Of a stretch of 19,179 nt of DNA, positions 444 to 19,179 are shown one piece after another (position 1 is the stretch's first letter; the number at the start of each line of letters is the position of its first letter). This stretch comes from Candidatus Fervidifonticultor secundus. Its GTDB lineage: Bacteria; Sysuimicrobiota; Sysuimicrobiia; Sysuimicrobiales; Humicultoraceae. The DNA lies in the NCBI GenBank assembly GCA_031459385.1, contig JAVKIP010000033.1:1-19179 (forward strand), written 5' to 3'. The translations under genes were made by a program, and so were the position numbers. Under the pieces are notes generated by a model. That model made no database searches. It was not told the origin of the DNA and saw only the letters and a list, made by a program, of their open reading frames with translations.

Positions 444-3692
<3,249 letters not shown>

Positions 3693-4919: not shown

Positions 4920-5291
4920 ATGTACGCGCTGAACTTCTATTCGTCGCTATTCGCGGAGGCGCTGCGCACGGGCCGGAAGACGGTGACCATCCGGCTCGGC
5001 AACAAGACGGATAAGTACCACGACGGGCAGGTGGTGTGGGTCACCGTCGGCCGCCGCTTCGGCACCCGGCGCAAGATCTTCCCGGCGATCATCGATCGCG
5101 TGGAGGTGAAGCGCGTGGCAGAGGTGACCCCCCGCGAGATCGAGCGCGACAACCCGGAGCTGCGGCGGCACGAAGAGCTCATGGAGTTCCTCTCGAAGAT
5201 CTACGGCCGGCCCGTGTCGCTGGACGACGAGGTGTCGGTCATCCACTTCTCCCGGATCGAGGAGGGCACCGGCATCGGCGGTGACGCCTGA
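4920..5291 (+). CDS. ASCH domain-containing protein (123 aa)
   Basis: N-terminal ALRTGRKTVTIR matches the ASCH GxKxxTxR signature; C-terminal IYG...VSVIHF is typical; GGAGGAG RBS just upstream. Confidence 0.85.
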   Translation: MYALNFYSSLFAEALRTGRKTVTIRLGNKTDKYHDGQVVWVTVGRRFGTRRKIFPAIIDRVEVKRVAEVTPREIERDNPELRRHEELMEFLSKIYGRPVSLDDEVSVIHFSRIEEGTGIGGDA

Positions 5292-5893
5292 GGCGTCGCT
5301 GGCTGCCAGCCGGCTCCGTCGGGGATGAGGAGCACGGCGGGCGGGAGCGGACCCGTCAGGTAGAGCTGGGGACCAGCGCGCCAGAAGACGATGCCGGCGT
5401 CGTGCGCCGGACGCGCACGCACCGCCACCACGACCACGTCGTCGGCGTGCCGCCGGGCTACTGCCGCGGCCTCAGCCGGTGTCGTGGCCAGGTGAACGTA
5501 CTGCCGGGCCCCCGGGCGCAGCCCCGCCGCCCGGATCTCGGCGAGAGCCCCCCACGGCACGCCACAGTACAGCCACTCCGGCGGCAGGGCGGGTGTGCCG
5601 GGGGCCTGGATCTGCACGGTGTGACCGTAGCGCGCGCGGATGCGCCCGTCGCGGAGTTCGTACCGGCGCGGGTCGGCGGCGGCGACGCTGGCGACCTCAC
5701 CGGCCGTGATCTCCTCCCATCCCGGCTGCGCCGCCAGTGCCCGGGCCAGCGCGCCGAGTTCCACGAAGCCCTCGGCGTCCAGCGTCAGGCCTACGTCCTC
5801 GGGCTTGTGGCGGAGTACCCGCGCCAGCAGCCGGCTCAGGCGGAGCCGGCGCAGTGCCGACCGTCTGGCTCCCGCACCGCGCGTCGACGGCAT
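5201..5893 (-). CDS. kptA: RNA 2'-phosphotransferase KptA/Tpt1 family protein (230 aa), divergent NAD lobe
   Basis: C-terminal part of track ORF 5201..8428(-), from MPSTR at 5893: LSRLLARVLRHKP..GLTLDAEGFV, DPRRYE, IRARYGH, RQYVHL are Tpt1 hallmarks; start codon uncertain. Confidence 0.85.
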   Translation of the reverse strand: MPSTRGAGARRSALRRLRLSRLLARVLRHKPEDVGLTLDAEGFVELGALARALAAQPGWEEITAGEVASVAAADPRRYELRDGRIRARYGHTVQIQAPGTPALPPEWLYCGVPWGALAEIRAAGLRPGARQYVHLATTPAEAAAVARRHADDVVVVAVRARPAHDAGIVFWRAGPQLYLTGPLPPAVLLIPDGAGWQPATPQASPPMPVPSSIREKWMTDTSSSSDTGRP

Positions 5894-5980
5894 GAACGTC
5901 CCTGCGGGGAGGGTTGGCCATCGTGCCGAGGAGAACCTGCCGTCGCGACGAACTGCACGCGCGAGGTGACGGAGAGGACG

Positions 5981-6886
5981 GTGGACCCCGTGCCCGCCCG
6001 CCTGGTGGAGTGCGTCCCGAACGTCAGCGAGGGACGTCGACAGGAGGTCGTCGACGCCATCGTGCAGGCCGTGCGGGCGGTGGACGGCGTCCGCGTGCTC
6101 CACGTGCACTCCGACCCCAGTCACAATCGCAGCGTGATTACCTTTGCGGGCGCTGCCGATGCCGTCGGCCGGGCCGCGCTGGCCCTGGCCCGCGCCGCCG
6201 TGGAGCGCATCGACCTGCGCACCCACCGCGGCGAGCACCCGCGGATCGGTGCCGTAGACGTCATCCCGTTCGTGCCCGTCGGTGAGACGTCTATGGAGGA
6301 GTGCGTGGCGCTGGCGCGCCAGGTAGGACAGGAGATCTGGGGGACGCTGCGCGTGCCCGTGTACTTCTACGCCCAGGCCGCCACGGCGCCCCACCGGATC
6401 CGGCTGCCGGAGATCCGCAAGGGCGAGTTCGAAGGACTGGGCGAGAAGATGGCGCAGGCGGACTGGGCGCCGGACGTGGGCGACCCGCGACCGCACCCTT
6501 CGGCCGGCGCGGTGGCGGTCGGGGCGCGGCGGCCGCTGGTCGCCTACAACATCAACCTCCACACCGCCGACGTGGGCGTGGCGCGCGCCGTCGCCCGCGC
6601 CGTCCGCGAGTCGGGCGGTGGGCTCGTAAACGTGCAGGCCATGGGTGTGATGGCGGCCTCGGGGCAGGCGCAGGTGTCCATCAACGTCCTGGACCCGATG
6701 CAGACCCCGCTGCACCGGGTGTTCGACCTGGTCCGCCTCGAGGCCGACCGCCACGGCGTGGCCGTTGCGGAGAGCGAGATCGTCGGGCTGGTGCCGCTGG
6801 ACGCCCTGGTCGATGTGGCGCGCGCCTACCTGCGCCTCTGGCGCTTCGAGCGCAGCCAGGTGCTTGAGGTGCAGTTGATGGAGTGA
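5981..6886 (+). CDS. ftcD: Glutamate formiminotransferase (FT domain only, 301 aa)
   Basis: LVECVPNVSEGR, HSDPSHNRSVIT, IDLRTHRGEHPRIGAVDVIPFVP, AVGARRPLVAYN, ESEIVGLVP; GGAGAGG at 5971-5977 before GTG 5981 (GTG 5990 is an alternative). Confidence 0.92.
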   Translation: MDPVPARLVECVPNVSEGRRQEVVDAIVQAVRAVDGVRVLHVHSDPSHNRSVITFAGAADAVGRAALALARAAVERIDLRTHRGEHPRIGAVDVIPFVPVGETSMEECVALARQVGQEIWGTLRVPVYFYAQAATAPHRIRLPEIRKGEFEGLGEKMAQADWAPDVGDPRPHPSAGAVAVGARRPLVAYNINLHTADVGVARAVARAVRESGGGLVNVQAMGVMAASGQAQVSINVLDPMQTPLHRVFDLVRLEADRHGVAVAESEIVGLVPLDALVDVARAYLRLWRFERSQVLEVQLME

Positions 6887-6889
6887 GCC

Positions 6890-7720
6890 GTGACCGCTGG
6901 ACCGTCTGATGCCAGGGCAGGGCCCGCGCAGGACCTGGCGGCCACCGGGCTGGCCTGGGACTTGCCCACGGCTGCCGCGGCCGGTCTCGGACGCCCGCTG
7001 GTGCGCGTCGGGGAGACCGAGTCGACCAACGACCTGGCACGGCGCCTGGCGGACGCCGGGCTGCCCGAGGGTACGACCGTGGTCGCGGTCCGGCAGACCC
7101 GCGGGCGGGGCCGCCTGGGCCGCGCCTGGGCGTCGCCGGAAGGCGGGCTGTGGTGCTCGGTGCTGCTCCGCCCTCCTCCCGGGGTCGCCTGGACGCTGCT
7201 GAGCCTGGCCACGGCGCTCGCCGTGGCGGAAGCGGTGGAGGCCGTCGGCGGAGTGCGTGCCAGCCTGCGGTGGCCGAACGACGTCCTGGTGCACGGCAGG
7301 AAGGTCTCTGGCATCCTGCTCGAGGCCACGGGGAGCGCGCTGGTCGTCGGCGTCGGGATCAACGCCAACGTGCGCCTGGACGCGCTGCCGCCGGAGGTGC
7401 GCGCGGGGGCGACGTCCCTCGCCGTCGCGGCCGGTCGGCCCGTGGACCTGGAAGCTCTGCGCGTGGCATTCCTGCGGCGGCTCGCCGTCTGGTACGATGC
7501 GTGGAGGGCGGCAGCAGACGTCCCCGGTGCGTGGGCCGCGCGCGACGCGCTGGCCGGGCGACGCGTGGTGGTCCGCACATCGGGCGAGGTCGTCGAGGGC
7601 ACCGGGGAGGGTGTGGCAGACGATGGCGCACTGCGCGTGCGTCTGGCGAGCGGCGAGGTCCGGCGCGTGCTCGCGGGCGATCTCGTGGGACTGGAGGTAC
7701 GCGGCGCGCACGGGCCGTGA
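6890..7720 (+). CDS. birA: Biotin--[acetyl-CoA-carboxylase] ligase without an N-terminal HTH
   Basis: STND, QTRGRGRLGRAWASP, RWPNDV, KVSGILLE, GVGINAN and a C-terminal DDGALRV domain. Confidence 0.92.
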   Translation: MTAGPSDARAGPAQDLAATGLAWDLPTAAAAGLGRPLVRVGETESTNDLARRLADAGLPEGTTVVAVRQTRGRGRLGRAWASPEGGLWCSVLLRPPPGVAWTLLSLATALAVAEAVEAVGGVRASLRWPNDVLVHGRKVSGILLEATGSALVVGVGINANVRLDALPPEVRAGATSLAVAAGRPVDLEALRVAFLRRLAVWYDAWRAAADVPGAWAARDALAGRRVVVRTSGEVVEGTGEGVADDGALRVRLASGEVRRVLAGDLVGLEVRGAHGP

Positions 7721-7729
7721 CGGGATCGG

Positions 7730-8728
7730 ATGCCGCCGGGCCCCCGCATGATCCGGACGGCCGTCGAGGGCAGCCCGGCGTCTGGTGACCCCGATCGCCT
7801 GCGGCGCGTCGTCAGCGCGAGCCTGGGCTCCAGCCGGGGCAATCACCGCTTCGAGACCACGCTGCTCGGCCGGCGGTTCGTCATCGAGCGCATCGGCACC
7901 GACGGCGACTACCGGGCCTGGTGCCGGCTGCTCCGCGACCTGGATGGCCGGGTGGACGCCATCGGGCTCGGCGGCATCGACCTGGCGCTGGTGGCCGGCA
8001 GCCGCCGCTATCCCATCCGGGACGCGGTCCGCGCTGTGGCCGGACTGCGCACGCCGGTCGTCGACGGTTGGGGGATCAAGAACAGCTGGGAGCGGCACGT
8101 CATCCACCAGGTGCTGCCGCAGGCCCTGGGCACCCCGCTGCGCGGCCGGCGGGTGCTCCTGGTCTCCTCCGTGGACCGGTACGGCATGGCCGAGGCGTTC
8201 ACCGAGGCCGGCGCCGACGTGATCTTCGGCGACTTCATGTTCGGCCTGGGGCTGCCGCTCCCGCTGCGCGGGCTGCGGACGGTGCAGGTGCTGGCGGCTG
8301 TGCTCCTGCCGGTGCTCACGCGGGGGCCCTTCACATGGCTCTACCCCACCGGAGCCAGGCAGCACCGTAGCACCCCGCGCTTCGGCGGCGCCTACCGGTG
8401 GGCCGAGGTCATCGCCGGTGACTTTCACCTCATCAGGCGGTACATGCCGCCGCGGCTGCCCGGGAAGGTCATTTTGACCAACACCGTGACCGCTGCGGAC
8501 GTCGAGGACCTCCGGCGCCGTGACGTCGCGCTGCTGGTCACGACGACTCCGGAGATGGGCGGCCGGTCGTTTGGCACCAACGTCATCGAGGCCGTGCTGG
8601 TGGCAGCGGCGGAACGCCGACCGGAGGGGCTGCGCCCGGAGGACTACCTAGCCTGGATGCAGCGCATCGGCTTCCAGCCCCGCGTCGAGCGGTTCGCGCC
8701 GGCGTCCTGGGCCGCCGCTCGCGCGTAG
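7730..8728 (+). CDS. Conserved hypothetical protein (resembles a family often loosely annotated 'quinate 5-dehydrogenase'); start uncertain
   Basis: RRVVSASLGSS, IERIGTDGD, LDGRVDAIGLGGIDL, VDRYGMA, WLYPTG, IAGDFH, ILTNT, GRSFGTNVIEA look like conserved blocks; fills the gap between birA and era; ATG 7748 is an alternative start. Confidence 0.75.
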   Translation: MPPGPRMIRTAVEGSPASGDPDRLRRVVSASLGSSRGNHRFETTLLGRRFVIERIGTDGDYRAWCRLLRDLDGRVDAIGLGGIDLALVAGSRRYPIRDAVRAVAGLRTPVVDGWGIKNSWERHVIHQVLPQALGTPLRGRRVLLVSSVDRYGMAEAFTEAGADVIFGDFMFGLGLPLPLRGLRTVQVLAAVLLPVLTRGPFTWLYPTGARQHRSTPRFGGAYRWAEVIAGDFHLIRRYMPPRLPGKVILTNTVTAADVEDLRRRDVALLVTTTPEMGGRSFGTNVIEAVLVAAAERRPEGLRPEDYLAWMQRIGFQPRVERFAPASWAAARA

Positions 8729-8736
8729 GCCCTACC

Positions 8737-9642
8737 GTGTCCGGCGACATCCCCGCCGTGCCGCACCGGTCGGGGTTCGTCGCCCTCGCGGGCCGTCCCA
8801 ACGTGGGCAAGTCCACCCTGTTCAACCGTCTGGTCGGTGCCCGGGTGGCGATCACCTCACCGGTGCCCCAGACGACGCGCACCGTCGCCCGCGGCATCCT
8901 GACGCGGCCCGACGCGCAGGTGGTGTTCCTGGATACCCCGGGGCTCCACGCGCCCCGCCACCGGCTGGGTGCCTGGATGGTGGAGCAGGCCCGTCGCGTC
9001 CTGGACGAGGTGGACCTGATCGCCTGGATCGTCGACGCCGCGGCCGGAGTGCGCGACGACGATCGCCTGGCGGCCAGAGCGTTGCGCGCGGCAGCGAAGC
9101 CGGTTGTGCTCGTGGTGAACAAGGTCGATGCCGCCGCCCCCGCGGCCGTCGAGGCCGTCGCCGCCGAGGCCGGAGCCCTGGTCCCGGTGGCCGTCACGTG
9201 CCGGCTGTCGGCCGAGCAGGGCCTGGGGGTCGCTGAGTTCCTCGACGTGGTGCTGGCGCGCCTGCCCGAGGGGCCGCCGTACTACCCCGCGGTCATGGTC
9301 ACGGACCAGCCGGAGCAGGTGCTGGTAGGCGAGCTGATCCGGGAGCAGATCATCCGGCATACTCGCGACGAGGTGCCGCACGTCGTGGCGGTAGAGGTCG
9401 AAGAGTTCGTCCAACGCAACGACGCGGCCGCGTACGTGCGGGCCACCGTGCACGTGGAGCGGCCCTCGCAGAAAAAGATCGTCATCGGCCGGGGCGGGCA
9501 GCGGCTCAAAGCCATCGGCACCGCCGCGCGGCGGGAGATCGAGACCCTGCTGGGTCGGCCGGTCTACCTCGATCTCTGGGTCACGGTGACCCCCGGATGG
9601 CGGGAGAAGCTGGCGTTCATCCGCGGATTCTACCCGGGGTGA
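8737..9642 (+). CDS. era: GTPase Era
   Basis: SGFVALAGRPNVGKST, QTTR, DTPG, NKVD, ELIREQI and KH domain IVIGRGGQRLKAIG. Confidence 0.96.
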   Translation: MSGDIPAVPHRSGFVALAGRPNVGKSTLFNRLVGARVAITSPVPQTTRTVARGILTRPDAQVVFLDTPGLHAPRHRLGAWMVEQARRVLDEVDLIAWIVDAAAGVRDDDRLAARALRAAAKPVVLVVNKVDAAAPAAVEAVAAEAGALVPVAVTCRLSAEQGLGVAEFLDVVLARLPEGPPYYPAVMVTDQPEQVLVGELIREQIIRHTRDEVPHVVAVEVEEFVQRNDAAAYVRATVHVERPSQKKIVIGRGGQRLKAIGTAARREIETLLGRPVYLDLWVTVTPGWREKLAFIRGFYPG

Positions 9643-9677
9643 GTGGCCGCCCGGCCCGGCGCCCAGGTACACCCAGC

Positions 9678-9706
9678 TTGACGCGCCCAGGCACCGCCGG
9701 TATACT
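9678..9706 (+). promoter_or_regulatory. sigma70/SigA-type promoter for greA
   Basis: TTGACG (9678-9683), 17-bp spacer, TATACT (9701-9706). Confidence 0.8.
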
Positions 9707-9777
9707 CCATGCCAGTCGCCAACCGACCGCCGGGCGCGCGTCCGGCGGTCGAGTCCATTGTATCGGCGGGCTGCAGC

Positions 9778-10284
9778 ATGAAGAACCCGAAGAATGCCAG
9801 GGTCAATGACGCCGAGAAGGAAACGATCCTGACCCGCGAGGGGCTCCGCAAGCTCGAGGAAGAACTCGAACACCTCAAGGGCACCCGGCGCAAGGAGGTG
9901 GCCGAGCGTATCAAGCAGGCCAAGGCGTTCGGCGACCTGGCGGAGAACGCGGAGTACGACGACGCGAAGAACGAGCAGGCCTTCATCGAGGGGCGCATCC
10001 TGCAGATCGAGCAGATGCTCCGCAGCGCCCGGGTCATCGACGACGCCGCCGTAGCGGCCGACGTGATCTCGGTAGGGTCCACGGTGCGGCTCAAAGACGT
10101 CGCGGCCGGCAGCGAGTTGACGTACACCATCGTGGGCTCGGCCGAGGCCGATCCCCTGGAGGACCGCATCAGCAACGAGTCGCCGGTGGGGCGGGCGCTG
10201 CTGGGCCGGAAGAAGGGCGAGACCATCACCATCCGTGTCCCGGCTGGCACGCTCAAGTACACGGTCCTCGACATCGTTCGGTAG
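9778..10284 (+). CDS. greA: Transcription elongation factor GreA
   Basis: LTREGLRKLEEEL, AKAFGDLAENAEYDDAK, YTIVGSAEADP..RISNESPVGRALLG; ATG 9778 chosen because ATG 9709 lies only 2 nt past the -10 box. Confidence 0.95.
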   Translation: MKNPKNARVNDAEKETILTREGLRKLEEELEHLKGTRRKEVAERIKQAKAFGDLAENAEYDDAKNEQAFIEGRILQIEQMLRSARVIDDAAVAADVISVGSTVRLKDVAAGSELTYTIVGSAEADPLEDRISNESPVGRALLGRKKGETITIRVPAGTLKYTVLDIVR

Positions 10285-10289
10285 TCCTC

Positions 10290-10328
10290 GGGCCGGGGTG
10301 GGGACCTGCCAGGTCCCGCCGTCGGCCC
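10290..10328 (+). terminator. GC-rich stem-loop downstream of greA (possible terminator or processing hairpin)
   Basis: gggccg (10290-10295) pairs with cggccc (10323-10328) and gggacct (10301-10307) with aggtccc (10311-10317); no good U-tract follows. Confidence 0.45.
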
Positions 10329-10510
10329 AATTGGGTACATCCTCTAGTGGATGCAGCTCCCCGGTGCCGGACTCGCCAGGGAATGCCGTCGCAGCGGGGT
10401 ACGTAGTACTGAAAGGGAACGGGGTCTCCATTCGTGTTCCGGGTCCGGGGAACCGGACCAGGCAGGAGTGCCGTTGGAGAAGACAGAATCGTGACGAGCG
10501 AGAAGCGGGG

Positions 10511-10536
10511 TTCCTCTCACCCTCGGAAGAGAGGAG
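10511..10536 (+). promoter_or_regulatory. Hairpin sequestering the clpC ribosome-binding site
   Basis: ttcctctc (10511-10518) pairs with gagaggag (10529-10536), which contains the SD GAGGAG. Confidence 0.5.
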
Positions 10537-10542
10537 CGTGCA

Positions 10543-13002
10543 GTGCCGATGTTTGAACGGTTCACCGAGCGCGCGCGCCGTGTCATCATCCTCGCGCAGG
10601 AGGAAGCCAAGCGGCTCAACCACAGCGCGGTGGGAACCGAGCACATTCTGCTGGGCATCATCCGGGAGGGTGAGGGGGTTGCCAGCAAGGTTCTCGAGAG
10701 CCTCAACATCAGCCCGGAGCGTGTGCGCGCCGAGATCGAGGGCGCCATCGGGCGTGGCGAGCGGTCTCCCCACGAAGAAGTGGCGTTCACGCCCCGGGCC
10801 AAGAAGGTCCTGGAGCTGGCCCTGGACGAGGCCCGGCGGCTGGGGCACAACTACATCGGCACCGAGCACCTGCTGCTCGGCCTGATCCGGGAGGGTGAGG
10901 GGGTCGCGGCGCGGGTCCTGGAGGCGATGGGGGCCGACCTGGACCGCGTCCGCGCCCAGGTCGTCTACCTGCTGGGCGAGGAGGGGACGACGTCCTACGC
11001 CAAGCAGGCCAGCAAGACCCCGACGCTGGACGAGTTCGGCCGCGATCTGACCAAGCTGGCCCGCGAGAGCAAGCTCGATCCGGTGATCGGACGCGAGCGG
11101 GAGATCGAGCGGGTCATTCAGGTGCTCTCCCGCCGCACCAAGAACAACCCGGCGCTCATCGGCGAACCCGGCGTCGGCAAGACGGCCATCACCGAAGGTC
11201 TGGCGCAGCGCATCGTCCGTGGCGACGTCCCCGAGGTGCTCCGGCACAAGCGCGTCGTCCAGCTGGACCTGGCGGCGCTGGTGGCCGGCACCAAGTACCG
11301 CGGCGAGTTCGAAGAGCGCATGAAGAAGGTGATGGAGGAGATTCGCAAGGCGCAGGGCGAGGTCATCCTGTTCGTCGACGAGCTCCACACCCTGGTCGGC
11401 GCGGGCGCCGCCGAGGGTGCCATCGACGCCAGCAATATCCTGAAACCTGCGCTGGCCCGCGGCGAACTGCAGTGCATCGGCGCCACCACGCTGGACGAGT
11501 ACCGCAAGTACGTCGAGCGCGATGCGGCGCTGGAGCGCCGGTTCCAGCCGATCCTGGTGGCCGAGCCGACCGTGGAGCAGACCATCGAGATCCTCCGTGG
11601 CCTGCGCGACCGGTACGAGGCCCATCACGGTGTCACCATCAGCGATGAGGCCCTGGTGGCGGCCGCGACGCTGGCCGACAAGTACATCTCCGACCGCTTC
11701 CTGCCCGACAAGGCCATCGACCTGATGGACGAGGCCGCCAGCAAGATCCGGCTGCAGGCGTCGTTCCTGCCGCAGGAGCTGCGTCAGGCCATGGAGCGCG
11801 TGGAGCGCACGCGGCGTGAGAAGGAAGAGGCCAGCAAGGCACAGGACTTCGAGCGGGCCGCGCAACTGCGCGACCGCGAGCGGGTGCTGCGGCAGAAGCT
11901 CGAGGAGCTGCAGGGGTCCATCAAGCGCGAGAAGGGCCGCGAGCCCACCGTGGTGACCGCCGAGGACATCGCGGACATCGTCTCGTCGTGGACCGGCATC
12001 CCGGTCACGCGGCTGGTCGAGGAGGAGACGCAGAAGCTGCTGCGGATGGAAGAGACGCTCCACGAGCGCATCGTCGGTCAGGATGACGCCGTGCGGGCCG
12101 TGGCCAAGGCGGTACGCCGCGCGCGGGCGGGCCTGAAAGACCCCCGGCGGCCCATCGGGTCGTTCATCTTTTTGGGCCCCACGGGCGTCGGCAAGACCGA
12201 GCTGGCACGGGCGCTGGCCGAGTTCCTCTTCGGCGATGAAGGGGCCCTGGTCCGCATCGACATGTCGGAGTACAGCGAGCGGCACACCGTCTCGCGGCTC
12301 GTGGGCTCCCCGCCAGGGTACGTCGGCTACGAGGAGGGCGGCCAGCTCACCGAGGCGGTGCGCCGACGGCCGTTCTCGGTGGTGCTCTTCGACGAGATCG
12401 AAAAAGCGCACCCGGAGATCTTCAACGTGCTGCTGCAGATCCTGGACGACGGCCGGCTGACCGACGCCCAGGGGCGCACGGTGGACTTCAAGAACAGCGT
12501 GATCATCATGACGAGTAACGTCGGCGCCCCGCAGCTGGACAAGGAGGTCGGCATCGGCTTTCGTGCCGCGGGCTACGACGAGACGGTGGACCGCGAGCGG
12601 CAGTATGAGCGGATGCGGGAACATGTCATGGAAGAGCTGCGGCGGACGTTCCGGCCCGAGTTTCTCAACCGCCTGGACGAGATCATCGTCTTCCGGCCGC
12701 TCACCCACGAGCAGATCAAGGCCATCGTGGGGATCCTGATGGAGCGCGTGCGGCGCGAGCTGCGCGGCCAGAACATGGATCTGGAGCTGACGCCGGCCGC
12801 CCAGGAAGTGCTGGCGCGCGAAGGGTTCGACCCCAAGTTCGGCGCGCGTCCGCTGCGGCGCGCCATCCAGCGGTTGATCGAGGACCCGCTGTCCGACGAG
12901 CTGTTGCGCGGGCAGTTCCGGCGCGGCGACGTGGTCGTGGTCGATGCCCGCGACGAGAAGATCGTCTTCGAGCGCAAACGCGAGCCGGCCCTGGCCGAGT
13001 AG
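10543..13002 (+). CDS. clpC: ATP-dependent Clp protease ATP-binding subunit ClpC
   Basis: MFERFTERA start (ATG 10549; GTG 10543 has better SD spacing), two Clp N-repeats (GTEH), Walker A GEPGVGKT and GPTGVGKT, short UVR-like M domain ([13 protein letters not shown]), IGF ClpP-docking loop, GARPLRR. Confidence 0.96.
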
Positions 13003-13026
13003 CCGTCGGCCGGCACCGACACCGGC

Positions 13027-13058
13027 GAACCCGGGCCCGCGGGCCCGGGTTCCTTTTT
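13027..13058 (+). terminator. Rho-independent terminator after clpC
   Basis: Perfect inverted repeat gaacccgggcccgcgggcccgggttc (13027-13052) followed by cttttt. Confidence 0.8.
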
Positions 13059-13108
13059 CCGCCGGCGGCATCGGGCGCTCCGGTGGTCGATGACCGGGAG
13101 GGGAAGCC

Positions 13109-14449
13109 GTGGAGCGCACCCGCTTCGTCTGCCAGGCCTGCGGGCACACGTCGGCCAAGTGGCTGGGACGGTGTCCCGGGTGCGGGGAGTGGAACACGCT
13201 CGCCGAAGAGGTCGTCCGGGCTGCCGGGCGGGGCACGCGACCGCCGGCGGCTGCCGAGCCGGTCTCGGTGGCTGCCGTGGACCTGGTACAGGAGGCGCGC
13301 ACCCCCAGCGGCCTGGCCGAGTTCGACCGCGTGCTCGGCGGCGGCGTCGTGGCCGGCTCCGTCGTGCTGGTGGGAGGCGATCCGGGCGTCGGCAAGTCCA
13401 CCTTGCTGACGCTCATCGCGCACCGGCTGACGCGCGCCGATCGGCCAGTCCTCTACGTCACCGCCGAGGAGTCGGCGCGGCAGACGCGCCTCCGGGCGGA
13501 GCGGCTGGGGGCCCTGGCACCCGAACTGCTCCTGCTGGCGGAAACCGACCTGGACGCGATCGCCGAGACCGTGCGGCGCGTGCGGCCGGCGGCGCTCATC
13601 GTGGACTCGATCCAGACCGTGTACCGGGGCGACGTGGCCTCGGCGCCGGGCAGTGTCGCCCAGGTCCGCGAGTGCGCCGCCTCGCTGGTGCGGCTCGCCA
13701 AGGACGAGGGCATCGCGACGTTCCTGGTCGGGCACGTGACCAAGGAGGGCGCGCTGGCCGGCCCGCGCGTCCTGGAGCATCTGGTGGATACGGTCCTGTA
13801 CTTCGAAGGCGACCGCCACCACGCGTACCGCGTGCTCCGGGCCACGAAGAACCGGTTCGGGCCCACCAACGAGATCGGCGTCTTCGAGATGACCGCCGCC
13901 GGCCTGCGCGAAGTGCCCAACCCCTCGGCCGCCTTCCTCGCCGAGCGACCTGCAGGCACGCCCGGCTCGGCCGTGGTGTGCGCCATTGAGGGCACGCGCC
14001 CCGTCCTCGTGGAGGTCCAGGCGCTGGTGACGCCGACGCACTTCGGCATGCCCCGGCGGACCGCATCGGGCGTCGACTACAACCGGCTGTTGTTACTGCT
14101 GGCGGTGCTGGAACGGCGCGCGGGGCTGCGGCTGGGCGACCAGGACGTCTACGCCAGCATCGCCGGCGGGCTCACCGTCGAGGAGCCGGCCGCCGATCTC
14201 GGCATCGCCCTGGCGGTGGCCAGCAGCCTCCGCGATCGGCCCGTGGACCCGCAGACCGTGGTCGTGGGCGAAGTGGGACTGGGCGGGGAGATACGCGGCG
14301 TGCCACAACTCGTGCGGCGGGTGGCCGAGGCCGCGCGGCTGGGCTTCGGGCGGGTGGTGGTGCCGGCGCAGGCCGTACAGGAGATTCCCGCGGGCGTCGA
14401 GGTGGTTGCGGTCCGCGATCTGAGCGGCGCGCTCCGGGCCCTGCTCTGA
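13109..14449 (+). CDS. radA: DNA repair protein RadA/Sms
   Basis: C4 zinc finger CQACG...WLGRCPGCGEWN, Walker A GDPGVGKST, IVDSIQT, KNRFG motif and a Lon-like C-terminal domain. Confidence 0.97.
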   Translation: MERTRFVCQACGHTSAKWLGRCPGCGEWNTLAEEVVRAAGRGTRPPAAAEPVSVAAVDLVQEARTPSGLAEFDRVLGGGVVAGSVVLVGGDPGVGKSTLLTLIAHRLTRADRPVLYVTAEESARQTRLRAERLGALAPELLLLAETDLDAIAETVRRVRPAALIVDSIQTVYRGDVASAPGSVAQVRECAASLVRLAKDEGIATFLVGHVTKEGALAGPRVLEHLVDTVLYFEGDRHHAYRVLRATKNRFGPTNEIGVFEMTAAGLREVPNPSAAFLAERPAGTPGSAVVCAIEGTRPVLVEVQALVTPTHFGMPRRTASGVDYNRLLLLLAVLERRAGLRLGDQDVYASIAGGLTVEEPAADLGIALAVASSLRDRPVDPQTVVVGEVGLGGEIRGVPQLVRRVAEAARLGFGRVVVPAQAVQEIPAGVEVVAVRDLSGALRALL

Positions 14450-16153: not shown

Positions 16154-17323
16154 GTGTGCTTCTCGCCCGTGGGTGAGGAGACCGCCGGCGCGGTCATCGT
16201 GGCGGCCGGCGAGGGCCAGCGCCTCCAGGGGCCCGTGCGCAAGCCGTTCCTGCCTCTGGACGGGACCACCGTGCTGGACCGCGCGCTCTCGGCGTTCGTG
16301 GAGTGCCCGCGGATCGGTCCTATCGTGGTCGTGGTAGCTGCGGCCGCCGCGGATGCGCTGCGGTCCCGGCTGCCCCCGCGCGTGACGGCCGTGGTGCCGG
16401 GGGGCGCGACGCGCCGCGCCTCGGTGGCCGCAGGGCTCGCGGTGCTCGACGAGGTGGGCTGGGTGGTGGTGCACGACGGCGTGCGTCCCTTCGTGACCCC
16501 GGAGCTGATCTCCCGCGTGGTGGACGCGGCCGCCGAGACCGGCGCGGCCACCCCCGGCCTGGCCGTCACCGACACGCTCAAGGTCGTGGAGGGAGATCGC
16601 GTCCGCCGCACCGTCGACCGCCGGGGGCTCGTGGCGGTGCAGACGCCCCAGGCGTTCCGGACGACGCTGTTGCGGCGGGCGCATGCAGCAGTGCCGCTCG
16701 ACGCGCACGTGACCGACGACGCCGAGCTGGTCGAGCGGCTGGGGGTCGCGGTGCGGGTCGTACCCGGCGATCCCGCCAACCTGAAGATCACGACGCTAGC
16801 GGACTACGAGCTGGCCCGGCGGTACGCCGGGCGCATGGCCGGCGACCTCCGGGTGGGCATGGGTGTGGATGCCCACCGTCTGGTACCCGACCGACCGCTC
16901 GTGCTGGGCGGGGTACGCATTCCCCATGCCCGCGGGCTCGAGGGACATTCCGATGCCGATGCTCTGACCCACGCGGTCATCGATGCCCTCCTCGGCGCCG
17001 CTGGCCTGCCGGATATCGGCCGGCAGTTCCCTCCCGACGACCCGGCCTTCCGCAACGCCGACAGCCTGGACCTGTTGACCCGGGTGGTGGCGGACCTGGC
17101 GACAGCGGGCTGGACCGTGGTGAACGTGGATGCCGTCGTCTGCGCGGAGGAGCCGCGGCTGGCGCCCCATGTGGAGACGATGCGCGAACGGCTGGCAGAG
17201 GTGCTGGGCGTCGCCCCCGCGTGCGTGGGCATCAAGGCCACGACATGGGAAGGGCTGGGCGCGACCGGGCGCGGCGACGGCATCACGGCTCAGGCGGTGG
17301 CGCTCGTGCGGAGGCAGGCGTGA
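16154..17323 (+). CDS. ispDF: Bifunctional IspD/IspF (MEP cytidylyltransferase / MEcPP synthase)
   Basis: IspD motifs IVAAGEGQRL..K, VHDGVRPF, QTPQAF, NLKITT fused in frame to IspF motifs RVGMGVDAH, GHSDAD, DIG..FP, IKATT; GTG 16169 is an alternative start. Confidence 0.93.
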   Translation: MCFSPVGEETAGAVIVAAGEGQRLQGPVRKPFLPLDGTTVLDRALSAFVECPRIGPIVVVVAAAAADALRSRLPPRVTAVVPGGATRRASVAAGLAVLDEVGWVVVHDGVRPFVTPELISRVVDAAAETGAATPGLAVTDTLKVVEGDRVRRTVDRRGLVAVQTPQAFRTTLLRRAHAAVPLDAHVTDDAELVERLGVAVRVVPGDPANLKITTLADYELARRYAGRMAGDLRVGMGVDAHRLVPDRPLVLGGVRIPHARGLEGHSDADALTHAVIDALLGAAGLPDIGRQFPPDDPAFRNADSLDLLTRVVADLATAGWTVVNVDAVVCAEEPRLAPHVETMRERLAEVLGVAPACVGIKATTWEGLGATGRGDGITAQAVALVRRQA

Positions 17324-17700
17324 GCGCCCGCCGCCGGCGGCCTGCACCTGCCCGGCGGCGCCGGCCCGGGGCCGGCGGTCGTCCGGGGGCGGGGCTGGCG
17401 CACGACGTCGTCTTCATCGAGCGTGCGGCGCTCGCCGAACCGGTAGCCGTGGAGCTGGCGCTGCCGGCGGCGCCGCGGCCCCGGCTCGTCGGCTTCTGGC
17501 GCGGGCGGGAGTTCCACACCATCGTGCGCACCGTGGCCGTCCGCCGCGAACACGAGGCCACCTACCACCGGGTGGTCACGGACCGCGGGGCGTTCGACCT
17601 GCGCGCGGTGCGCCGGATGCACCCCCTCACGCTGCGCGTGCACCGCGCCTGGGAACTGTGCGCCGAACTGGAGATGGTGCCCGTCGCCCGCCACCCTTAG
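17320..17700 (+). CDS. Small hypothetical protein (126 aa), DUF6504/ImuB-C-like
   Basis: C-terminal part of track ORF 16303..17700; GTG overlaps the ispDF stop (GTGA) with GGAGG at 17310-17314; pattern EPVAV...FWRGREF..IVR...YHRVVTDRGAFDL...WEL. Confidence 0.65.
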   Translation: MSARRRRPAPARRRRPGAGGRPGAGLAHDVVFIERAALAEPVAVELALPAAPRPRLVGFWRGREFHTIVRTVAVRREHEATYHRVVTDRGAFDLRAVRRMHPLTLRVHRAWELCAELEMVPVARHP

Positions 17701-17776: not shown

Positions 17777-19179
17777 ATGCCGCTGCAGGTCTACAATTCG
17801 CTGACCCGCCGCAAGGAGCCGTTCACCACCCTCGAACCCGGCCGCGTACGCATGTACGTCTGCGGTCCCAACCTCTACGGGCCGGCGCACGTGGGCCACG
17901 CGCTGTCGTACACGGTTTTCGACGTCATCCGTCGCTACCTGGAGTACCGCGGCTACCAGGTCCGCCACGTGCAGAACTTCACCGACATCGAAGACCGGAT
18001 CGTCGAGCGGGCACGGCGGGAAGGTCGCAGCATCTTCGAGATCGGCCAGGAGTACCTCGAGCGCTTCCTCGCCGAAATGGACGCCCTTGGTATCCAGCGC
18101 GCGCACCACTACCCGCGGGCCACCCAGGTCATCCCCAAGATGATCGAGATCATCGAGACGCTGATCGCCCGGGGCAACGCTTACGCCGTCGATGGGGACG
18201 TGTACTTCCGGGTGACCTCGGTGCCGCACTACGGGGCGCTGGCGGGCAGGACGCTGGAACAGATGCAGGCGGGCGCCCGCGTGGACGTGGACGAGCGCAA
18301 GGAGCACCCCATGGACTTCGCGCTGTGGAAGGCCGCCAAGCCCGGGGAGCCGGCCTGGGACAGCCCCTGGGGGCCCGGCCGGCCCGGCTGGCACATCGAG
18401 TGCTCTGCCATGTCGATCCAGTTCCTGGGCGAGCAACTCGACGTGCACGGCGGCGGAGAGGACCTGCGGTTCCCGCACCACGAGAACGAGATCGCCCAGT
18501 CGGAGGCCTACACCCGCCGGCGGCCGTTCGTGCGATTCTGGATCCACAATGCGCTGATGAAGCCGCCGGTCGGTGAGGAGATGCACCGGCACCTGGGCAA
18601 CTTCGTCTCGATTCGCGACGCGCTGGCCCGGTACGAGGCGGACGTGATCCGGCTGTTCGTCCTCTCGGCCCACTACCGGACGCCGCTGCGCTGGACCGAC
18701 GAGGCCCTGGACGGCGCGGCGCGGGGGCTGGAGCGCCTGCGGACCGCCGCGGCGAACGCGGCGGCCGCGCTGGAGCGGACCTCCGGCGTACCCACCGCGG
18801 GCCCGCTGGCGGCGCGTGCCGAGGCCGCGCGGGAGGCGTTCGAGGCGGCCATGGACGACGACTTCAACACCCCGCAGGTCCTGGCCGCGCTGTTCGACCT
18901 GGCCGCCGACGTCAACCGTGGTGCGGCCGCCGCGCTCCAGGGCCACCGGGCCGCGTCGGGCGGGCTGGCGGCCGCTGCGGAGATGCTGCGGCGGCTGGCC
19001 GGCGTGCTGGGGCTGCGGCTCGACCGCATCGACGTGCCCGAGGCCACGGCCGCCGCGCTGGCACGCCTGCTGGATGATCTGCGCGCGCGGGAACCGGCGC
19101 TGTTCGCCGACGGCGCGCCGCCGGCGCATCCGGCGGCCATCGTGGCGGGGGGGGGGGGGGGGGGGGGGGGCCGGCCCCC
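17777..19179 (+). CDS. cysS: Cysteine--tRNA ligase-like protein with atypical catalytic motifs (3' truncated; missing from the ORF track because no stop is reached)
   Basis: Hand translation from ATG 17777: MPLQVYNSLTRRKEPF...MYVCGPNLYGPAHVGHAL...NFTDIEDRI...YPRAT...DFALWK...WDSPWGPGRPGWHIECSAM...DVHGGGEDLRFPHHENEIAQSEA...GEEMHRHLGNF...SAHYR...AMDDDFNTP. Confidence 0.88.
   Translation, partial: MPLQVYNSLTRRKEPFTTLEPGRVRMYVCGPNLYGPAHVGHALSYTVFDVIRRYLEYRGYQVRHVQNFTDIEDRIVERARREGRSIFEIGQEYLERFLAEMDALGIQRAHHYPRATQVIPKMIEIIETLIARGNAYAVDGDVYFRVTSVPHYGALAGRTLEQMQAGARVDVDERKEHPMDFALWKAAKPGEPAWDSPWGPGRPGWHIECSAMSIQFLGEQLDVHGGGEDLRFPHHENEIAQSEAYTRRRPFVRFWIHNALMKPPVGEEMHRHLGNFVSIRDALARYEADVIRLFVLSAHYRTPLRWTDEALDGAARGLERLRTAAANAAAALERTSGVPTAGPLAARAEAAREAFEAAMDDDFNTPQVLAALFDLAADVNRGAAAALQGHRAASGGLAAAAEMLRRLAGVLGLRLDRIDVPEATAAALARLLDDLRAREPALFADGAPPAHPAAIVAGGGGGGGGRP

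Follow-up and report, generated by a model that had tools for sequence, protein, structure and literature searches.

The stretch of DNA analysed here (the window) is one whole contig of 19,179 nucleotides, JAVKIP010000033.1, from the metagenome-assembled genome (MAG) of Candidatus Fervidifonticultor secundus, which belongs to candidate phylum CSP1-3 ("Sysuimicrobiota"). The gene in question is cysS at its right-hand end, which encodes a cysteinyl-tRNA synthetase (CysRS, cysteine--tRNA ligase) whose KMSKS signature loop reads EMHRH. With this lysine-free loop the protein is a new form of a known enzyme, one shared across its lineage, and it gives no sign of a novel enzymatic function. We consider it highly probable, judging from sequence, that the protein is the organism's single, essential, working housekeeping CysRS with a lineage-specific remodelled KMSKS loop. 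A preliminary description of the same DNA had favoured a repurposed enzyme.

We found no description of a KMTRH- or EMHRH-type CysRS in the literature, and a term search of the main text of the paper describing the phylum (PMC11604079), supplements aside, also came back empty.

Family, fold and signature residues

All features of this gene lie on the forward strand. Translation of 17777-19179 gives a 467-residue open frame, in which residues 29-45 read CGPNLYGPAHVGHALSY and residues 257-276 read HNALMKPPVGEEMHRHLGNF. The frame, earlier described as uninterrupted, is indeed open throughout, but it runs off the contig without a stop of its own. The 5' 456 codons of cysS occupy 17777-19145, and the last 34 bases of the contig (19146-19179) are a non-coding poly-G/GC tail, an assembly or sequencing artefact. 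Full-length orthologues have ~507 residues and carry the usual C-terminal anticodon-binding domain; by comparison with these, the window CysRS lacks ~50 C-terminal residues because of the contig end, for a technical and not a biological reason. As to the tRNA-binding modules, the DALR_2 helical domain with its DDDFNTP motif lies in the window gene (residues 354-415, 18836-19021; PF09190, 60.4 bits), and the C-terminal anticodon-binding domain is seen in full-length orthologues, including one from the same genus.

The protein belongs to the CysRS family. It scores 437.5 bits on TIGR00435, the cysS equivalog model (cut-off 340), and 382.4 bits on PF01406 (cut-off 27), and its 289.1 bits on TIGR03447, the model for the paralogue MshC (mycothiol cysteine ligase), fall below the threshold of 485.1. 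The best solved relatives are the CysRS structures 8QHP, 1LI5/1U0B, and 3TQO. An AlphaFold2 model built from 59 sequences has a mean predicted local distance difference test score (pLDDT) of 93.1 and a predicted template modelling score (pTM) of 0.89, and its top Foldseek matches are the CysRS structures 8qhp, 1u0b, and 1li5, with template modelling (TM) scores of 0.77-0.83 on query length. The only weaker stretch of the model is the loop, with a pLDDT of ~72 at residues 261-280.

The zinc ligands are all present. Cys29 (in CGPNLYG, residues 29-35, 17861-17881), Cys209 (in WHIEC, residues 205-209, 18389-18403), and His234 and Glu238 (in HHENE, residues 234-238, 18476-18490, itself part of FPHHENE, 232-238) are invariant in the 59-sequence alignment, as are Trp205 and His206; their equivalence to the Escherichia coli zinc site (C28, C209, H234, and E238, with W205) is taken from a phmmer alignment. 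The HIGH motif is kept as HVGH (residues 38-41, 17888-17899), with H38 and G40 invariant and H41 nearly so. What is absent is the KMSKS signature with its two lysines. Residues 268-272 (18578-18592) read EMHRH, within GEEMHRHLGNF (residues 266-276, 18572-18604), so that only Met269 is kept and Arg271 stands at the position of the second lysine.

The loop does not change by itself. When 54 non-identical rows of the variant type (EMHRH or [KR]MTR[HS] loops) are compared with 66 canonical rows, seven alignment columns switch together. Position 32 is Asn in 54/54 variant rows and Thr in 66/66 canonical ones; position 36 is Pro in the variant and mostly Asp, Lys, Ser, or Glu otherwise; and position 72, which lies in TDIEDRIVE (residues 69-77, 17981-18007), is Glu in 54/54 against Asp in 60/66. 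Position 96 (18062-18064) is a basic residue particular to the variant, Arg in 51/54 rows against Glu or Asp in 51/66. Position 262 (18560-18562) is Lys or Arg in 54/54 and Gln in 50 of the 66 canonical rows; it opens the stretch before the loop, which the alignment shows to be 2-3 residues longer in the variant type. Within the loop, position 270 is Thr or His instead of Ser, and position 271 is Arg in all 54 variant rows and Lys in 64/66 canonical rows.

Set against KMTRH, the EMHRH form has lost the lysine (EE-MHRH vs EEKMTRH), has His for Thr, and has acquired Pro264. The Glu before the Met is best read, from this alignment, as the result of a one-residue loop shortening that would have removed the first lysine. 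Lysine makes up ~1.4% of residues in EMHRH-type CysRS, compared with ~5% in canonical relatives.

The change at position 32 falls on a substrate contact. In MshC, the Thr of the CG-x-T motif makes a hydrogen bond with the substrate alpha-amino group (PMC9736012), and its equivalence to the CysRS Thr is taken from the common Zn-Cys-G-x-T motif. The zinc/cysteine site, which the preliminary description had called intact, is therefore so for the zinc ligands but not for this Thr, which is Asn throughout the variant type. Translation places the motifs that had been named there (GEEMHRHLGNF, EMHRH, CGPNLYG, HVGHAL at residues 38-43, TDIEDRI at residues 69-75 or 17981-18001, and HNA at residues 257-259) exactly where they had been put. 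As marks of divergence, CGPNLYG and TDIEDRI hold up; the replaced Arg after HIGH and the HNA are not distinctive, canonical Chloroflexota CysRS reading HVGHAMS and canonical CSP1-3 CysRS reading HNA.

Copy number, distribution and history

The genome (G000; 3.3 Mb, 97.6% complete, 5.5% contamination, 72% GC) has only one cysS-family match over the cut-off, the window gene, whether searched with TIGR00435 or with the protein itself. The only other match in these searches is a 965-residue class I synthetase-like frame at 25 bits. Neither SepRS (best 30.5 bits vs 380.65) nor SepCysS (best 25.3 bits vs 365.25) was found over the cut-off in this genome. The tRNA-Cys(GCA) located by ARAGORN at G000:C34:164361-164435 is a normal one, of 75 nt, with U73 and an encoded CCA. 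A second ARAGORN call of the same type (G000:C2:58854-58949, reverse strand, 96 nt) is probably spurious, a product of GC-rich sequence: its acceptor stem has 8 bp, its extra arm is long, its T-arm is poorly formed, and Rfam gives no match at E <= 1.

The other class I synthetase-like frames of the genome, whose identities were assigned from motif context alone, keep KMSKS, KMSKT, or RMSKS (x-M-S-K-[ST]), and so the loop change is specific to CysRS. We also note that the LeuRS-like and ValRS-like frames (G000:C12:55490-57973, and the 965-residue frame L004 on G000:C12) read RMSKS, with Arg for the first Lys, which fits a general Lys-to-Arg drift in a genome of 72% GC.

The same picture holds across the phylum. 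A cysS-family match over the cut-off is present in 59 of the 60 genomes that are at least 90% complete: exactly one in 58, two in G010, and none in G001. In a census of 64 CSP1-3 genomes, 28 have an EMHRH loop, 30 have [KR]MTR[HS], and the remaining 6 have canonical KMSKS. This census omits five of the 69 phylum genomes searched, namely G001 (no match) and G020, G023, G024, and G026 (fragmentary matches). Two genomes flagged as unpublished are within the counts, G019 among the 28 with EMHRH and G010 among the 30 of KMTR type; G010 is the only KMTR-type genome with a second cysS copy of a different type. No other result depends on these two genomes.

Outside CSP1-3 the variant type is found in a few Chloroflexota (Dehalococcoidia) MAGs, where it is of the KMTR type and the sole cysS in 5/5 examined. 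It is rare there: a KMTRxLGN pattern searched in DNA occurs in 2/401 sampled Chloroflexota genomes, with 0 control matches. Of the 50%-identity clusters (1.8 billion proteins), the 150 whose representatives lie nearest include 124 with KMSKS, and nearly all the others keep the second Lys; only P0002 (KMTRH), whose cluster represents the window lineage, has the variant type.

Several other departures from the norm came to light in these collections. Four members of the representative library (P0048, P0049, P0065, and P0103) have a KMAHS loop, in which the second Lys has become His, together with CG-L-T-P-K upstream of HIGH; the lysine of that motif looks like a compensating one. P0048 scores 443 bits on TIGR00435. 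A metagenomic singleton CysRS homologue, P0104, reads EMHKS, TDIEDRL, PGWHIED (the zinc-ligand Cys209 having become Asp), and HHEAE, and matches cysS only across model positions 1-331. It would be a better candidate than the window protein for a truly repurposed CysRS-like protein. Many of the Dehalococcoidia genomes G074-G193 have two or three cysS-family genes, as against the single copy in CSP1-3. Some of the extra forms match only the first ~370-425 model positions, mostly in frames of ~390-470 residues, without the C-terminal part; others are full-length matches in frames of ~750-850 residues, beside a normal cysS.

The variant is under purifying selection. Pairwise ratios of nonsynonymous to synonymous substitution rates (dN/dS) are 0.068-0.237 in 11 orthologue pairs (280-449 codons), and throughout a family-level clade the EMHRH peptide stays the same while its codons differ synonymously (CAC/CAT, CGG/CGC). 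With an intact fold besides, this agrees with the earlier view of a selected multi-site change and not of decay. Two doubts raised at that time can also be settled. An assembly error is contradicted by the occurrence of the same EMHRH, with synonymous codon differences, in 28 independent genomes, and the thought that close relatives might all have KMSKS, with selection relaxed here, does not agree with the census, in which only six genomes have it, or with the purifying dN/dS.

Trees were built without the loop columns, using FastTree on 120 rows and a "quick" IQ-TREE run on 71 rows. In both, the CSP1-3 variant CysRS form one well-supported group (support 98 and 97, respectively). Holding all variant rows together as one clade is not rejected by the approximately unbiased (AU) test (p = 0.24), so the type as a whole may have arisen once. 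Two origins are suggested by the free tree, which groups Dehalococcoidia KMTRS with canonical Dehalococcoidia, but given the same p value they are not established. A single origin of EMHRH, on the other hand, is rejected (AU p = 6.4e-5, with 26 EMHRH rows held together). The trees thus indicate two or more changes between KMTRx and EMHRH, or else an exchange by recombination.

In six genomes of CSP1-3 family f2 (loci L034-L036, L038, L039, and L041) the CysRS is of the KMSKS type, ~50% identical, and on a long separate branch. Its genomic position is that of the relatives' variant gene, and a small open reading frame (ORF) found upstream of cysS, described below, is kept at 5/6 of these loci. 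This looks like in-situ xenologous replacement by a foreign gene.

Some of these genomes allow a direct comparison. In one genus, G051 carries EMHRH and G037 carries KMSKS, and their tRNA-Cys genes are identical; G003 (KMTRH) and G048 (KMSKS) likewise have identical tRNA-Cys; in each of the four genomes the enzyme is the sole cysS. Whichever of the three loops the enzyme has, its tRNA shows the same acceptor stem, U73, D-arm, and anticodon arm, and differs only in the variable loop and at one position of the T-stem. Within-genus swaps on identical tRNA-Cys are in our view the strongest available evidence that the variant CysRS does the same job.

It is against this background that a repurposed or catalytically dead homologue (a sensor, editor, or partner), with Cys-tRNA made in some other way, should be weighed. 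Both KMSKS lysines are gone, the first replaced by an acidic residue, and CysRS-family paralogues with other roles do exist, MshC for example (PMC9736012). However, the genome has no other cysS-family gene, SepRS, or SepCysS that we could find, and it has a normal tRNA-Cys; in 58 of the 60 phylum genomes there is a single cysS-family match, and 58 of the 64 in the census have the variant type. The zinc site, HIGH, and DALR_2 are kept, as is the anticodon-binding domain in orthologues; the gene sits in an orthologous housekeeping position with a dN/dS of ~0.1; the MshC model stays below its cut-off; and canonical and variant genes replace each other within a genus. We regard repurposing as very unlikely. 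The more specific proposal of an inactive partner to a second canonical CysRS is not supported, as no second cysS-family gene was found in a genome that is 97.6% complete.

A different possibility is a working CysRS in which the loop, together with T32N, D72E, K262, and R96, alters chemistry or regulation. Options would include a His-Arg-His loop dependent on metal or pH, another nucleotide or divalent-ion preference, or a changed tRNA dependence of activation. The joint switch of seven columns, among them the Thr-to-Asn change where the substrate is contacted and two positions that have become basic, could be read in this way, and the failure of EMHRH to form one clade, with at least two state changes, suggests a favoured path. 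The model, confident elsewhere, is also at its least certain in the loop, but low confidence is usual at KMSKS loops (PMC11580382). KMTRS has no loop His and KMTRH only the last one, yet both are equally sole-copy, which means that the type does not depend on these histidines, and the swap of canonical and variant enzymes in one genus with the same tRNA argues for equivalent cell function. Altered chemistry or regulation seems to us rather improbable.

Mechanism and genomic context

If the protein is, as we believe, the housekeeping CysRS, a plausible course of the reaction can be sketched. Cysteine would be selected by the intact zinc site (C29, C209, H234, E238, and W205), whose presence is evident in the sequence. 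The alpha-amino group would be held by the G30 backbone, T69, and Asn32 in place of the usual Thr, by analogy with the published description of the MshC structure. ATP would be bound by HVGH and the conserved Met269, and, as adenylation passes through its transition state, the guanidinium group of Arg271 would stand in for the second KMSKS lysine. More speculatively, the newly acquired Lys262 and Arg96 may compensate for the lost first lysine. Cys-AMP would then pass to an ordinary tRNA-Cys(GCA, U73), recognised by the C-terminal anticodon-binding domain.

The loop itself may have arisen in a series from KMSKS to [KR]MTR[HS], when the loop gained 2-3 residues, and from there, by loss of the Lys, to E-MHRH. 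Strong GC pressure against Lys codons probably helped, though this is speculation.

Published mutants give some room for such a change. The K266A, K269A, and K266/269A forms of E. coli CysRS left protein-synthesis capacity intact in a cell-free system, and human CARS2 K317/320A retained Cys-tRNA synthetase activity (both PMC5660078). In LeuRS, the usual partners of the loop lysines are the phosphate for the second and tRNA residue C75 for the first (PMC5059758).

A number of points nevertheless weigh against the housekeeping reading and should be stated together. That the CysRS is active we infer from its conservation and from its being the only copy. Losing the first Lys, exchanging Thr for Asn at a contact with the substrate (T32N), and acquiring D72E are no trivial alterations of an active site, and the cell-free assay of PMC5660078 is qualitative and does not demonstrate wild-type kinetics. 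At 97.6% completeness and 5.5% contamination, a second gene may formally lie on unassembled DNA, as in any single MAG, and no cysS turned up in G001 (94% complete), which is one of the 60 phylum genomes. The C-terminal tRNA-binding part of the window gene is visible only in orthologues, owing to the cut at the contig end. Lastly, GC pressure is not a sufficient cause of the variant: KMSKS persists at 72% GC in CSP1-3, and KMTRH occurs at 56% GC.

A bolder formulation can be put forward, which we hold only tentatively and think somewhat more likely to need amendment than to stand as a whole. It says that the whole phylum translates with a CysRS that has no loop lysine, its transition-state stabilisation rewired to Arg271 together with the newly recruited K262 and R96, and its amino-group pocket refitted by T32N; that this state was reached or exchanged at least twice; and that the enzyme is competent in aminoacylation but null for persulfide synthesis.

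The surroundings of the gene are what one would expect of a housekeeping locus. Upstream of cysS lie radA, a PIN/TRAM gene, and an ispDF fusion (16154-17323, forward strand; PF01128 191 bits, PF02542 209 bits), and this is the classical cysS neighbourhood in many Gram-positive-type genomes. Between ispDF and cysS there is a small ORF of ~100 residues (17389-17700, forward strand), for which blastn shows conservation in more than 40 related loci. Throughout the phylum it is kept upstream of cysS genes of either type, variant or canonical, with ~66-80% DNA identity, and it matches no Pfam family and no Rfam entry. A T-box or other leader RNA upstream of cysS was considered and set aside; there is no Rfam match there at the gathering threshold or at E <= 1, and the conserved DNA is the small ORF.

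This context bears on one further explanation, namely that selection has favoured this form for resistance or self-immunity, by keeping out a natural inhibitor that mimics Cys-AMP. To our knowledge, no natural CysRS inhibitor has been described. The changes do affect an amino-acid contact (T32N) and the phosphate-binding loop, and there is a precedent in a self-immunity LeuRS with the altered loop KQSKS (PMC5059758). On the other hand, the window gene is a sole copy and its type is phylum-wide, where one would look for an extra copy beside a biosynthetic cluster, and its neighbours are housekeeping genes. We give self-immunity only the slightest chance.

Elsewhere in the window, ftsH (444-3692, forward strand) encodes a protein of 1082 residues with FtsH_ext, AAA, AAA_lid_3, and Peptidase_M41 domains, the AAA domain being split by an insertion of ~400 residues. 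The insertion has a sub-threshold match to Intein_splicing (30.3 bits vs a cut-off of 35.8), and ftsH probably contains an intein. Two very large ORFs lie on the reverse strand: one of 1075 residues (5201-8428), whose only domain is a C-terminal Tpt1/KptA RNA 2'-phosphotransferase, and one of 1519 residues (8857-13416), with no Pfam family at E <= 1e-5. Both may be partly spurious in a genome of 72% GC.

Comparison with known systems

The nearest relatives in kind are the CysRS with [KR]MTR[HS] loops, which occur in other families of CSP1-3 and in a few MAGs of Dehalococcoidia. They share N32, P36, E72, R96, K/R262, and R271 with the window CysRS and are, like it, sole copies. In contrast to the window EMHRH, they keep the first Lys or Arg, have Thr and not His at the third position of the loop, and are one residue longer.

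From another family, human TyrRS offers a precedent for a working class I enzyme in which the second lysine is dispensed with or replaced. This enzyme naturally lacks the second KMSKS lysine, and K+ is reported to take its place (Austin and First 2002). In the window CysRS, by comparison, an Arg fills the second position, and the first Lys is gone as well.

Among CysRS proper, E. coli CysS (1LI5/1U0B) and the archaeal-type 8QHP are 43-46% identical to the window protein and have the same fold, at the TM scores given above. The zinc ligands, HIGH, W205, DALR_2, and the invariant loop Met are common to all of them. The window CysRS differs in having EMHRH for KMSKS, with the first Lys lost and the second an Arg; in its longer pre-loop stretch with a new Lys/Arg; and in the changes of CG-x-T to CG-x-N, of TDIDD to TDIED, and of E/D96 to R. 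MshC has the catalytic fold and zinc site of the window CysRS. It retains KMSKS (289-KMSKS-293; PMC9736012), which the window protein does not, whereas the window protein has DALR_2.

For practical purposes, the KMSKS, KMTRH, and EMHRH orthologues provide a ready set for dissecting what the loop lysines contribute in CysRS, and the within-genus swaps on the same tRNA-Cys amount to a natural complementation experiment. They should also serve as a caution in annotation and drug-target work that takes KMSKS as obligatory.

The most interesting possible consequence concerns persulfide synthesis. Cysteine persulfide synthase (CPERS; Akaike et al. 2017) belongs to the same protein family as the window CysRS, and the lysines reported to be required for it and to bind pyridoxal 5'-phosphate (PLP) are K73, K76, K266, and K269 in E. 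coli; the KIIK and KMSK lysine mutants all lost persulfide-synthase activity (PMC5660078). Positions 74 and 77 of the window CysRS correspond to K73 and K76 of the "KIIK" motif and are Arg and Glu here, and the loop pair is E268 and R271, so that all four lysines are absent, just as the preliminary description had it. If the lysine model holds, loss of the PLP-dependent persulfide-synthase side activity is therefore predicted. The variant thus offers a test of how universal this moonlighting function of CysRS is. Should the prediction be true, it would be a natural separation-of-function CysRS, contradicting the claim that the side activity is conserved across all organisms.

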